DNA of 27,026 nucleotides from an uncultured Gammaproteobacteria bacterium (GCA_964438795.1 CAYTKU010000001.1:1-27026), one strand, 5' to 3'; positions 1-27,026 are shown, counted from the first letter of the stretch. Numbers and translations: made by a program. The notes: a model not told the origin generated them from the letters alone.

Positions 1-1105
1 ATCTCGGTGTACTCGTCACCTGAATATTCTCAGGCACGATCTCTATCCATATTTTTCCTGGTGCCAGGGGAATCTCGATCCCCGAACCATCCAAAAATTT
101 CGTCCGGAACGTTCGAGAATCTTTTTTCCATACGCCCTCAAATCTTTCACCATAAACATACACTTCTACCTTGCCTTCGCCAATCGTTCCAAGTGCACGA
201 CGACCCACATCATCAAGAATTTTGTCTGTCACATGCTGCACAATCACCGTACTGGCCTTGACTGGATTTCCATTACTATCCACATGCACAGTGTTGGAGT
301 GAAATCTTTCAAAGACTTTCAACTCTGAATTGTATTTCCATTTCACGACATACGAAGGACGCAAAAATGGAATCTGCACATCACTCACGCAGTTTGCTGC
401 ACACTCGCGGGTTGAACTGGCTGAAAAATTCCAACTTTCGAACTTGGCATCAACATTTTTGTCCGCATATCTTTCATACACATCTTTCCACAGATCGCTC
501 GAAGTAAAGGCATTGTGCGGAGCACTTTTATTTTCATCACGCCAAAAATATATTCCACGATAAAATTCATCGACATCAAAAATATTATACTGATCAATCT
601 TTTGCAGTGCTTCGGGAGACCCACCTACATGCATATACACGGCACCAGGATATTCAGAAACAAAATCCAAATAATATGGACGTGCACTACGCACTGGTCC
701 AGCCTTCTCCACATCTGAATCAAGAGGAAAAAGTGCCAAAAATCTCGTAATGTTGCCCTCGGCCGGTGCTTCATAGACTACGCTGGCCTGAGCAATTCCA
801 TCTTGTGGTCGAGCAGAAGTAAAATTCTCAATCATCACCCCAACGAGTGGTTGAAATTCTTCGGATTCACTCGGCACACACTCCCCTGTCAAGCCACTTT
901 GAAATTCACATTCTACCCTCTGATTTTGGGTCGAAGTCGCAGTGCCCATAGTATCATCCATCACTCCCCCAGTTTCTGTTGGCCTTCCTCGCAAGATAAA
1001 ATACAAGAGCAAAATAATCGCACAGAAAAATACCACAGCCGCAATCGCATAAAACAATTTTTCTTTGTCTTTTTTTATATCTTGCAAAAGTTTTTTGAAA
1101 TTCAT
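1..1105 (-). CDS. DUF3048 (YerB-like) domain protein with N-terminal membrane anchor; 3' end runs off the window
   Basis: Not in the ORF track (no stop inside the window). Manual translation from ATG at 1105: MNFKKLLQDIKKDKEKLFYAIAAVVFFCAIILLLYFILRG (TM) ... VGVMIENFTSARPQDGIAQASVVYEAPAEGNITRFLALF ... GPVRSARPYYLDFVSEYPGAVYMHVGGSPEAL ... PGKIWIEIVP, the characteristic DUF3048 and DUF3048_C motifs. Confidence 0.85.
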   Translation of the reverse strand, partial: MNFKKLLQDIKKDKEKLFYAIAAVVFFCAIILLLYFILRGRPTETGGVMDDTMGTATSTQNQRVECEFQSGLTGECVPSESEEFQPLVGVMIENFTSARPQDGIAQASVVYEAPAEGNITRFLALFPLDSDVEKAGPVRSARPYYLDFVSEYPGAVYMHVGGSPEALQKIDQYNIFDVDEFYRGIYFWRDENKSAPHNAFTSSDLWKDVYERYADKNVDAKFESWNFSASSTRECAANCVSDVQIPFLRPSYVVKWKYNSELKVFERFHSNTVHVDSNGNPVKASTVIVQHVTDKILDDVGRRALGTIGEGKVEVYVYGERFEGVWKKDSRTFRTKFLDGSGIEIPLAPGKIWIEIVPENIQVTSTPR

Positions 1106-1237
1106 ACATTGTTGTGGTCAGTGTTATTATATGATAGAAAGATTTTTCTTTTATGGAGCTGCAATACTTTTTTACTTTTATTACCGACGTGTACAAAAAT
1201 AAAAAGGTATAAAGCGAATAAAAGAAAATTTTTCTCC

Positions 1238-2581
1238 CTAGGCTACTATTTTACCATACAATATCCATTCTTCCACTTTGAAAATTTCTATCTCTACAAT
1301 TTGACCAATAAAACTCTCGTCACCCTTGAACCTCGCTCGTTTCATCTCCAGCGTATTGCCACTACACCAACCATTGGCACATTCTTCTACCAATATTGAT
1401 ACCTTTTGCCCCAGATACTTCTGATTTTTGCGAAGCACTGTTTCTTCCATCAGTTTTTGGAGGACCCACCAGCGACGTTTCTTTTCTTCTTTTGACACAT
1501 CATCTTTGAAAGCCTTTACAGCGAGCGTTCCACTGCGAGTAGAATATTGTGCACTGTAGGAAATATCAAAATCACACTGTTTGTACAGATCAACCGTATC
1601 TTCAAATTGCTCTTCGCTCTCACCACAAAACCCGACAATAATATCTGTGCCAAGGGCAATATCCGGTTTTTTCTCCCGAATACGTTTCACGAGGTCAATA
1701 TAAAAATCTCGTTTGTGACGACGATTCATGCGTCGAAGCACCTCATCATTGCCAGACTGCACTGGCAAATGCAAAAAATTCACTTGTTTTGGCAAAGTCA
1801 GCGCATCAATCACCTCTTCGGTCATGAAGATCGGATGAGGAGCCGTATAGTGAATACGCTGCACCCCATCTATCTGATTGAGCTCCCAGAGAAGTTTGGC
1901 AAAATCGCTTTTGGTGTAGGGATTGTTCGGACTAAAATATTCTGGATCTGGTGCAATATAATGATTGACAATCTGACCAAGCAGGGTGATCTCGAGGCAC
2001 CCATGAAGTGCCAAGTCCGTGGCTTCTCCCAAGATCTCTTTGAGAGAACGGTTGAGCTCAAGCCCACGCGAAAACGGCACCACACAGTAGGTACAAAAAT
2101 GATTACACCCCGTCTGAATCGTAACAAACGCCTGATAGGCTTTTTTTATGGTCGGACGAAGATTGAAGTAGTGCTCCGACATATCTTCGAGCGGTGCGAG
2201 GTTTGGATTGAGCTCCCCCAGCCACTTTGGGAGATGCACCATGTCTTTGGTCGGAAAAAAAAGGTCAACCGCAGGCATTTTCTTTTGCATTGCGCCGTCC
2301 TTGTCTCGCCCTGGCATACAGCCCGTCACCGCTACGATGAGATCGGGGTTTTTGACCTTGAGGTCGGCAAATTTGTGCACCATACTATAGATACGATCCT
2401 CGGCAGCCTGACGAACCGAACAACTATTCAGCAAAATCACATCAGCCTCGTCCTCTATCTCAGTAGAAACCATGTTCAGACGATCAAAAATCGACTCGAT
2501 ACGCTCAGAATCGTTCTTGTTCATCTGACACCCAAAGGTGATTATTTTATACTGAAATTTTTTGTGTTCTGCTGCTTGCAT
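1238..2581 (-). CDS. miaB: tRNA-2-methylthio-N6-dimethylallyladenosine synthase (radical SAM methylthiotransferase)
   Basis: UPF0004 motifs TFGCQMN, NSCSVRQAAE, VTGC; radical SAM CNHFCTYC; LHLPVQSG; TDIIVGFCGE; C-terminal TRAM-like region. Start moved from GTG 2602 to ATG 2581 because 2592-2620 is a consensus promoter. Confidence 0.95.
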   Translation of the reverse strand: MQAAEHKKFQYKIITFGCQMNKNDSERIESIFDRLNMVSTEIEDEADVILLNSCSVRQAAEDRIYSMVHKFADLKVKNPDLIVAVTGCMPGRDKDGAMQKKMPAVDLFFPTKDMVHLPKWLGELNPNLAPLEDMSEHYFNLRPTIKKAYQAFVTIQTGCNHFCTYCVVPFSRGLELNRSLKEILGEATDLALHGCLEITLLGQIVNHYIAPDPEYFSPNNPYTKSDFAKLLWELNQIDGVQRIHYTAPHPIFMTEEVIDALTLPKQVNFLHLPVQSGNDEVLRRMNRRHKRDFYIDLVKRIREKKPDIALGTDIIVGFCGESEEQFEDTVDLYKQCDFDISYSAQYSTRSGTLAVKAFKDDVSKEEKKRRWWVLQKLMEETVLRKNQKYLGQKVSILVEECANGWCSGNTLEMKRARFKGDESFIGQIVEIEIFKVEEWILYGKIVA

Positions 2582-2591
2582 AAGTCCCAGG

Positions 2592-2620
2592 ATTATACCC
2601 ACTCAAAGTGAAAAATTCAA
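2592..2620 (-). promoter_or_regulatory. sigma70-type promoter of miaB
   Basis: Minus strand TTGAAT (2620-2615), 17 nt spacer, TATAAT (2597-2592); ATG follows 10 nt later. Confidence 0.75.
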
Positions 2621-25565: not shown

Positions 25566-26126
25566 ATGCACCATCTTTCTGATGTTATAAAACAAAAATC
25601 CTACGAGAATATTATCTATGTGCTCAGACGTCATCCAATCACATTTATCCCACAGATTTTGTTTTTTTTCATCTTAGCAATCATCCCGATTATTCTTTAT
25701 TTTTTTATTCGCAACTCTCTCTCAGATCTTCTCCTCGGGCCCATTTCCTATCCACTCCTTGTTTTGTCAGCAAGCATCTATTATCTCAGTATCTTATTAT
25801 TTTTTTATACTGAATTTATTATTTTTTATCTCGACATCTGGATCGTAACCAATGATAGAATCATTGATATTGAGCAGCAAGGACTTTTTTCCCGTTCGAT
25901 TTCTGAGCTTGATCTTTTTCGCATCCAAGACGTCACATCTGATACGCATGGAGTTCTTGCGACGGTCTTTAAATATGGAAACGTAATTGTAAAAACAGCA
26001 TCAAATAATATTAACATTGTCTTTAAAAATGTAAAAAATCCAGACAAGGTTCGTGAAGACCTGATACACTATTCTCACATTGATCGAAAGTTTCACATGG
26101 GAACAGCAGCCTCCGAAGAAGCATAG
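25566..26126 (+). CDS. membrane-anchored bacterial PH-domain (bPH_2-like) protein
   Basis: Two TM helices, then WIVTNDRIIDIEQQGLFSRSISELDLFRIQDVT..G.LATVFKYGNVIVKTA. Confidence 0.85.
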   Translation: MHHLSDVIKQKSYENIIYVLRRHPITFIPQILFFFILAIIPIILYFFIRNSLSDLLLGPISYPLLVLSASIYYLSILLFFYTEFIIFYLDIWIVTNDRIIDIEQQGLFSRSISELDLFRIQDVTSDTHGVLATVFKYGNVIVKTASNNINIVFKNVKNPDKVREDLIHYSHIDRKFHMGTAASEEA

Positions 26127-26136
26127 CTTTCTCTCT

Positions 26137-26460
26137 ATGTTTTCTCAATTTTTTGGACTTTCGCCCATATTTCAAGCTCTGATCATCTTCCTATTCATAG
26201 TCAATATTATTACATTTATTACTTTTGGCCTCGATAAAATGAGATCTCGTGGCAATGGACGCAGAACTCCAGAAAAAACACTCTGGCTCCTGACACTTCT
26301 TGGCGGATCTCCAGCAGCACTTCTTTCAATGAAATATTTTCGACATAAAACCAAAAAACTTTCTTTTCAAGCAGTTATTGTTTTGATTCTTGCTATTCAA
26401 GTCGCAATGATATTTTTTCTCTTTTCTTTTTTCCAAAAAAATTATACTCAAAATTTTTAG
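26137..26460 (+). CDS. DUF1294 family membrane protein
   Basis: FITFGLDK..RRTPEKTLWLLTLLGGSPAALLSM..FRHKTKK.SF motif. Start moved to ATG 26137. Confidence 0.9.
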   Translation: MFSQFFGLSPIFQALIIFLFIVNIITFITFGLDKMRSRGNGRRTPEKTLWLLTLLGGSPAALLSMKYFRHKTKKLSFQAVIVLILAIQVAMIFFLFSFFQKNYTQNF

Positions 26461-26484
26461 CCTGTTTATTTTCTCCACATTTTT

Positions 26485-27026
26485 ATGCCTGTCCGCATTC
26501 CAAAAATTGGATCAACTCTTTCACGAGAAGAGATAAAAAATATTGAACTCTTTGCCCGCTCTTGCCGAAGAACAATTATTGAAATGACCACAGAAGCACA
26601 GAGCGGACATCCAGGAGGATCACTGAGCTCAATTGACTATCTTTCACTCCTCTATACATGTATCATCAGCCACACCAATGATCCTGTTGTTATCTCCAAT
26701 GGTCATATTTCTCCTGCCATCTATGCTCTTTTGGCAGAACTTGGAACAGTACCAAAAAAAGATGTTATCGATAATTTTCGCAAAATTGGATCTCAGTTCG
26801 AAGGCCACGTCTCTCGCCAGGTTCCAGGTGTCTGGTATAGTACAGGCCCACTTGGTGCAGGAATATCTGCGGCGAGTGGATTTGCTCTGGCACAAAAACT
26901 TCAGTCACAAAAGGGTAATTCTTCGACTTCGATCAGAGTAAAAAAAGTATTTGCAACACTTGGAGACGGCGAATCACAAGAAGGCCAAGTGTATGAGATG
27001 ATGAACTTTGCGGCCAAATATGAACT
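26485..27026 (+). CDS. tkt: transketolase, N-terminal TPP-binding domain (partial, runs off the window)
   Basis: Not in the ORF track. Manual translation MPVRIPKIGSTLSREEIKNIELFARSCRRTIIEMTTEAQSGHPGGSLSS..ISNGHISPAIY..FEGH..STGPLGAG..LGDGESQEGQVYE. Confidence 0.9.
   Translation, partial: MPVRIPKIGSTLSREEIKNIELFARSCRRTIIEMTTEAQSGHPGGSLSSIDYLSLLYTCIISHTNDPVVISNGHISPAIYALLAELGTVPKKDVIDNFRKIGSQFEGHVSRQVPGVWYSTGPLGAGISAASGFALAQKLQSQKGNSSTSIRVKKVFATLGDGESQEGQVYEMMNFAAKYE

Follow-up and report, generated by a model that had tools for sequence, protein, structure and literature searches.

The stretch of DNA analysed here (the window) is 27,026 nucleotides long and makes up the opening 27 kb of contig C1 in G000, the genome of an uncultured bacterium assembled to 596 kb in 73 contigs, with 69% completeness and a G+C content of 39%. 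Pfam matches in the window correspond to ordinary housekeeping genes: threonyl-tRNA synthetase (ThrRS), RuvB, both ribonucleotide reductase subunits, UppS, a PilB-type ATPase and parts of ABC transporters. The nearest named relatives of the window RuvB were metagenome-assembled genomes of Candidatus Magasanikbacteria, followed by Falkowbacteria and Kerfeldbacteria, and by this measure the source appears to be a tiny, Magasanikbacteria-like bacterium from the candidate phyla radiation (CPR; Patescibacteria). An alternative genetic code was considered and rejected: reading TGA as a sense codon inflated open reading frames (ORFs) on both strands, but translation table 11 by itself gave dense, Pfam-supported genes. 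The feature under study is the base immediately before the start codon, which in this window is almost always T, so that genes open with TATG (UAUG in the mRNA). The evidence below supports U at position -1, or U(-1), as a selected and lineage-specific part of the translation start signal.

The initial annotation of the window listed 23 ATG starts and stated that every one has T at -1, many as CTATG or TCTATG. Re-reading of the coordinates bore this out, with ten starts reading CTATG and six TCTATG. Because eight of the starts had been moved in that annotation, we re-derived all of them by a rule that ignores the -1 base and takes the first in-frame ATG past the upstream stop. Twenty-one of the 23 listed starts were the first in-frame ATG, and 14 had no alternative ATG, GTG or TTG upstream. 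The blind rule returned T(-1) at 22 of 23 genes, the sole exception being a CATG at 16937, the rival of the listed start at 16958. An ortholog at locus L013 (84% identical) aligns from 16958, and its own frame opens two codons upstream. The earlier choice of starts was thus only slightly post hoc. The chance of about 1e-11 first attached to the pattern assumed 33% T; if the least favourable background nearby is taken instead (position -3, with 45% T), 22 of 23 gives p = 3e-7.

The window starts and the evidence for each are collected in Table 1. At the second of four ABC-2 permease paralogs, an earlier in-frame ATG at 14433, also with T(-1), lies inside the preceding gene; the L013 homolog has a frame that opens at the position of 14514, but it is only 25% identical. 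The same gene is preceded by the AAGGA that had been noted as the only run resembling a Shine-Dalgarno (SD) motif, and within the window no other was found at a usable distance from a start, which confirms the absence of SD motifs claimed for this stretch. The four paralogs (PF06182) stand in tandem at 13717-16903 and are followed by an ABC ATPase gene; every gene of this array starts with TATG, 2-11 nt past the preceding stop.

Table 1. TATG starts of the 23 genes in the window, with the evidence for each
Gene	Position of TATG	Strand	Evidence
DUF3048 protein	1103..1106	-	First in-frame ATG, no upstream alternative; Pfam
MiaB-like radical SAM methylthiotransferase	2579..2582	-	First ATG; GTG 7 codons upstream has A(-1); Pfam
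291-aa protein, no Pfam match	2816..2819	+	First ATG, no alternative
676-aa protein, no Pfam match	3770..3773	+	T(-1), start scan
thrS (threonyl-tRNA synthetase)	7644..7647	-	T(-1), start scan; Pfam
406-aa protein, no Pfam match	9293..9296	-	T(-1), start scan
380-aa protein, no Pfam match	10672..10675	-	T(-1), start scan
PilB/GspE-type (T2SSE) ATPase	12589..12592	-	First ATG; GTG 3 codons upstream has A(-1); Pfam
335-aa protein, no Pfam match	13605..13608	-	T(-1), start scan
ABC-2 permease paralog 1	13716..13719	+	T(-1), start scan; Pfam
ABC-2 permease paralog 2	14513..14516	+	2 bases past previous stop; AAGGA upstream
ABC-2 permease paralog 3	15304..15307	+	T(-1), start scan; Pfam
ABC-2 permease paralog 4	16114..16117	+	L013 ortholog (63% identical) starts at aligned TATG
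ABC transporter ATPase	16957..16960	+	L013 ortholog residue 1 aligned at TATG; rival CATG 16937
AI-2E family transporter	17962..17965	+	T(-1), start scan, ortholog alignment; Pfam
uppS (undecaprenyl diphosphate synthase)	19264..19267	+	L013 and L018 orthologs likewise TATG
Ribonucleotide reductase small subunit	21078..21081	-	T(-1) kept at four ortholog loci in three genomes; -2 to -8 differ
Ribonucleotide reductase large subunit	24003..24006	-	Six ortholog loci, residue 1 at TATG; TTG 34 codons upstream has A(-1)
ruvB	24249..24252	+	T(-1), start scan, ortholog alignment; Pfam
84-aa protein	25299..25302	+	Orthologs mostly TATG; CATG in one genome (L018 = L098)
bPH_2 domain protein	25565..25568	+	TATG at 9/10 ortholog loci
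107-aa protein	26136..26139	+	TATG at 4/4 ortholog loci
Gene running off window end	26484..26487	+	First ATG, no alternative

Start context was then scored across G000 in a set of 450 ORFs that do not overlap and have 100 codons or more; 447 of them had enough upstream sequence. T preceded 352 of the 447 first ATGs (79%) compared with 28% of 2,400 internal in-frame ATGs, and even against a background of 45% T the probability of such a count was 3e-48. When only unambiguous starts were considered, meaning those with no rival ATG, GTG or TTG from the upstream stop to 15-40 codons downstream, T(-1) rose to 85-88%. In the table of upstream positions only -1 stood out from its neighbours. In orthologs that align to the N-terminus of window genes, the aligned ATG had T(-1) at 40 of 46 loci (one genome is counted twice among these, as two loci), and positions -2 to -8 varied freely. 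The proposal of a near-obligate U(-1) holds as a strong, selected context, but the rule covers about 85-90% of genes rather than all of them. Its separation from the A(-3) rule of Bacteroidota was upheld, as -3 in G000 was 45% T and 29% A and no upstream adenine context was seen. The gene for initiation factor 3, infC, was not a conserved exception to the rule in this family: its ATG had T(-1) in three of four genomes read and C(-1) in the remaining one, and the frame was not found at a fifth locus.

To place these values, 20-kb stretches of other genomes were scored by the same blind rule, together with 981 genes from 65 non-Patescibacteria loci that had been fetched by chance (Lachnospiraceae, Bacteroides and others) and served as controls in the same pipeline. 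The signal fades with phylogenetic distance: T(-1) was 78% in the order to which G000 belongs (292 genes, 20 genomes), 59% in its class (846 genes, 60 loci), 45% in the rest of Patescibacteria (887 genes, 60 loci) and 32% in the controls. Loci with T(-1) of at least 0.75 numbered 9 of 15 in the order, 10 of 51 in the class, 1 of 52 in the phylum and 0 of 53 among controls. SD-like motifs preceded 57% of control genes and were scarce across the whole phylum sample (11-20%), which makes SD scarcity broader than the strong U rule.

We considered whether T(-1) might be an artefact or by-product, arising from biased choice of starts, from A+T-rich composition or from the footprints of small hairpin mobile elements. 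The eight relocated starts lend this some colour, as does the T-rich intergenic DNA of G000, with 36-45% T over positions -20 to -3. Against it, the blind rule gave 79-88% here and 32% in the control genes, position -1 alone departs from its neighbours, and T(-1) is conserved across orthologs. These comparisons refute start-choice bias and composition as the cause. Mobile elements fare no better, as the T is present where genes lie only a few bases apart and leave no room for an element. Taken together, an origin of this kind is extremely unlikely.

Leaderless mRNAs offer another account, in which the T marks a transcription start at the ATG; RNA polymerase favours a purine as the first base (+1) with a pyrimidine ahead of it (-1). 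A small excess of hexamers resembling a -10 element did begin at -14 to -12 from the ATG. It involved about 23-26 of 437 genes, some two times as many as at neighbouring offsets. The position table nevertheless lacked a strong promoter signal at a fixed distance, and leaderless transcription would fit no more than about 5% of genes. Among same-strand genes 0-100 nt apart, T(-1) was 82% at spacings of up to 10 nt, rose to 90% for 11-40 nt and reached 100% for 41-100 nt, whereas it was lowest (64%) in divergent genes, which have their own promoters and where the first-ATG rule over-extends most easily. As T(-1) is as frequent inside operons as at their heads, it is not a mark of transcription start, and this rules out the leaderless explanation for the bulk of genes. 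A few leaderless mRNAs may exist, but as a general account the idea is very improbable.

Avoidance of the same word elsewhere was also detected. Internal Met codons followed a T-ending codon less often than did Ile ATT codons; the ratio was 0.63-0.67 for G000, its order and its class, and 0.94 for controls. ATG itself was depleted within 30 nt on either side of starts. Frequencies per kb in G000 were 9.7 upstream of starts, 12.8 downstream and 18.1 mid-gene, and those in controls were 15.6, 18.6 and 21.1; order and class loci likewise showed the depletion more strongly than controls. Both the TATG and the ATG effects are modest, and the upstream ATG figure is partly forced by the first-ATG rule.

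Genome-wide data support the earlier proposal that initiation is essentially independent of SD pairing. SD-like motifs (matches of 4 nt or more) preceded 8.3% of G000 starts and 20% of internal ATG decoys, and G made up only 10-13% of bases at -20 to -2. T(-1) was found in 81% of genes without an SD-like motif and 57% of those with one (Fisher p = 0.001), an anticorrelation to which we give no weight because mis-called upstream ATGs in coding DNA inflate the SD-like class. Strong SDs are not wholly absent from G000: outside the window they occur before rpsU, before rpsB and before a few GC-rich genes, of which one is a clear case and one or two are candidates. Upstream of the rpsB gene (uS2, recognised by its N-terminal sequence; contig C14, about 10590-10620, + strand), GAGGAGGTGA lies at 12 nt from the TATG; G000 has very few other extended SDs. 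On contig C6 (2308-3100, - strand), a 264-aa membrane-protein gene with 54.5% G+C, compared with a gene mean of 39.6%, has AAGGAGG and G(-1); its motifs resemble those of a CPBP/CAAX-type intramembrane protease. A small GC-rich ORF on contig C19 (about 1165-1340, + strand) encodes a Cys-rich (CxxCxGxG-like) peptide and has C(-1), and its leader, TCACTGGGAGGTGA, resembles that of rpsU.

The 3' end of 16S rRNA carried the canonical anti-SD, GATCACCTCCTTTCT, in all 12 relatives read, one of them of the same genus. Both a four-domain bS1 homolog and a divergent bS21 gene were found in G000. When G000 and four near-complete relatives were searched for bS21 with Pfam, no match exceeded the cut-off, and a single match of 21 bits appeared. 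Tracing this match led to the divergent bS21 gene (rpsU) in G000 (contig C3:25836-26100, - strand; locus L253); of 31 genomes of the order, 30 have it. A class-level bS21 homolog exceeds both the Pfam and the TIGR00030 S21 cut-offs.

The bS21 gene is almost alone in keeping an extended SD. An SD of this kind (AGGAGGTGA) precedes it in G000 and, across the order, in 29 of 30 genomes; in G000 itself, AAGGAGGTGA lies 7 nt ahead of a GTG start. Across the rpsU leaders of the order (L242-L271), the SD is at least 6 nt long in 29 of 30 and at least 8 nt in 23 of 30, has the form (A)GGAGGTGA and is spaced 4-9 nt from a GTG or ATG start (16 GTG, 13 ATG), and T(-1) is retained in 24 of 30. Just upstream, many of these leaders contain TCACC(T), which is able to pair with the SD in the manner of an anti-SD mimic. 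The anti-SD kept in relatives, together with the extended SD on the bS21 gene, points to an anti-SD that is masked rather than missing.

As the idea that U(-1) pairs with A37 of the initiator tRNA had accompanied the initial annotation, initiator tRNAs were located by BLAST and then ARAGORN. Searches with a fixed stem-loop pattern overlooked most genomes, since in many of them the loop adjoins just two G-C pairs. In G000 the initiator tRNA (contig C47:3826-3899) has a C1xA72 mismatch, three G-C pairs adjoining the loop and the anticodon loop C32-C33-C34-A35-U36-A37-A38 (CCCAUAA). Its anticodon stem-loop core, GGGCCCAUAACCC, is identical to the human initiator sequence. The loop was CCCAUAA or CUCAUAA in every initiator tRNA read, with A37 invariant among about 115, and many initiators of the class have two G-C pairs (ccagg...cctgg) instead of the canonical three. 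Position 33 of tRNAs is near-universally U. Here C33 was found in 15 of 20 genomes of the order, 40 of 55 of the class and 4 of 39 other Patescibacteria (loci L093-L232). According to PMC8887486, C33 belongs to the initiator tRNAs of multicellular eukaryotes and not to those of bacteria, and a U33C change abolishes the in vitro formation of N6-threonylcarbamoyladenosine (t6A) by E. coli TsaBCDE. G000 encodes TsaD and TsaC. Because C33 blocks t6A in vitro, we speculate that it might keep A37 unmodified. From the loop sequences, U(-1):A37 pairing is possible, A37 being present in every initiator read.

One further observation concerns an initiator gene in a genome of a different Patescibacteria family. 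That genome (G113) has on contig C77:152-224 an initiator tRNA that is 100% identical to that of G000 over 73 of 74 nt, as well as its own, differing initiator copy on contig C36. The copy that matches G000 is probably binning contamination.

How might U(-1) have become so prominent? We put at about even the chance that an existing fourth base pair, U(-1):A37, came under stronger selection through the loss of usable SD pairing until it was nearly obligatory. In E. coli, the interaction is supported by about 45,000 leaders assayed with A37 tRNA variants, where it gives a modest boost (PMC10018350), and older support comes from the Chlamydomonas chloroplast (Esposito et al. 2003, as cited in PMC10018350). 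The base, its position and the initiator A37 are the same in those systems, and U(-1) likewise favours initiation. The E. coli effect, however, modulates initiation on top of SD pairing and does not dominate in natural genes, whereas here U(-1) is carried by 85-90% of genes and SDs are missing. A weak start-context effect of E. coli thus seems to have become the main start signal in this lineage.

The same reading, held at about even odds, has further inferred parts. The anti-SD would be masked on mature ribosomes with the involvement of the divergent bS21, which would be autoregulated through its own SD as in Bacteroidia. The start would be chosen from an unstructured, G-poor and AUG-poor region by a four-base match, UAUG pairing with C34-A35-U36 and an unmodified A37 of formylmethionyl-tRNA, and the C33 common in the class may help to keep A37 free of t6A. 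A bolder version, which we hold to be rather less than probable, makes initiation here a distinct mode, in which UAUG is a four-base start word read with an unmodified A37, partly by way of C33, and the anti-SD is masked with a divergent bS21 made from a nearly unique extended-SD mRNA. It would form a second, independent solution to SD-less initiation beside that of Bacteroidia.

Several results weigh against the preferred reading. C33 was rejected as the cause of T(-1), as class genomes with C33 and with U33 had T(-1) of 0.59 and 0.60, respectively, and the five genomes of the order with U33 reached 0.91. Position 37 is A everywhere, so it offers no natural covariation with the -1 base, and pairing of U(-1) with A37 is indistinguishable from recognition by the ribosome. 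Moreover, A37 is constant while the strength of T(-1) varies, and something besides position 37 must set that strength. Some 12-15% of clear starts lack U(-1). In GC-rich members of the class, C rises at -1, up to about 50%, and position 37 is unchanged. C cannot pair with A37, and its presence suggests either a pyrimidine preference or weaker selection. Masking of the anti-SD on mature ribosomes, which we infer, is drawn from analogy alone, and the 16S rRNA of G000 itself was not assembled. Within the family, bS21 scores 21 bits against a Pfam cut-off of 27, and rpsU of a class member (L141) has no strong SD, among three class-level leaders read.

Some of the same results favour a reading in which U(-1) is a real determinant but is recognised by the ribosome or an initiation factor rather than by A37. 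The reader could be 16S rRNA or proteins on the E-site or platform side of the mRNA channel, or initiation factor 3 (IF3), and the lineage-specific strength would reflect changes in the ribosome. T(-1) strength varies widely across Patescibacteria with a constant A37, and the partial replacement of T by C in GC-rich relatives is easier to reconcile with a pyrimidine pocket than with Watson-Crick pairing. Alterations of CPR ribosomes are known (PMC9297842), and bS21 is divergent in this lineage. On the other side, no candidate residue or rRNA change was identified for a ribosomal reader, A37 is the sole reader of U(-1) for which work on bacteria and chloroplasts has given experimental support (PMC10018350), and SD loss alone could heighten selection on the existing A37 effect without any change in the ribosome. 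On balance we regard recognition by the ribosome or IF3 as unlikely, though it is the main rival.

The SD-blind ribosomes of Bacteroidia, with their Kozak-like upstream adenines and bS21 autoregulation, offer a parallel. The extended SD of rpsU matches what is described for Flavobacterium and other Bacteroidota, where bS21 contributes to burial of the anti-SD and rpsU is translated, by way of its extended SD, on ribosomes without bS21 (PMC9976891, PMC7797042). The sources on Bacteroidia (PMC6847099, PMC7797042, PMC9976891) describe the same depletion of SDs, retention of a canonical anti-SD and extended SD on rpsU. ATG is likewise depleted around their starts (PMC6847099), and some Bacteroidia have an SD on rpsB, as G000 does. 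Bacteroidia differ in belonging to another phylum and in favouring A at -3, -6 and -12/-13, in contrast to U(-1) here, and bS21 is divergent in the present lineage. The TCACC(T) of the rpsU leaders found here is unmentioned in the passages of these papers that were consulted, and PMC9976891 reports rpsU autoregulation for Bacteroidota only.

Within the CPR, scarcity of SDs or loss of the CCUCC motif has been described for some groups in PMC10783764 and by Tsurumaki et al. 2022 (PMC9297842). Those groups are alike in having few SD-led genes. The reports deal with CCUCC and pairing energies and, in the text available, contain no -1 U rule, and unlike the groups that lost the motif, the lineage studied here keeps its anti-SD. 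Our literature search, which did not extend to subscription journals, found no description of a -1 U rule or of an rpsU SD in CPR bacteria. The eukaryotic Kozak context is similar in being a short context around AUG that does not depend on rRNA pairing, and the initiator core found here, GGGCCCAUAACCC, has the C33 of initiator tRNAs of multicellular eukaryotes (PMC8887486). The present system differs in having neither scanning nor a cap and in that its key position is -1 and not -3, and C33 is unlinked to T(-1) in the genomes sampled.

How starts are found without SD pairing is an open question that has been partly answered only for Bacteroidia, and this lineage offers a one-base start rule obeyed by about nine in ten genes. 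The extended-anticodon idea thereby moves from a subtle effect in E. coli to a testable primary mechanism and, if true, would have a natural system where starts are as a rule recognised as quadruplets. The extended SD of rpsU suggests that Bacteroidota are not alone in masking the anti-SD by means of bS21 and in having specialised ribosomes without bS21. In practice, the U(-1) rule could serve as a start caller for thousands of CPR genomes, as standard gene finders rely on SD-type motifs, and it flags SD-led genes as atypical and possibly imported.

Two further tRNA genes were seen when the contigs of G000 were searched with ARAGORN: a tRNA-Ile with the anticodon UAU, and, next to genes for Ser-UGA and Ser-GCU, a tRNA-Ser whose anticodon, ACU, is an unusual one in bacteria.

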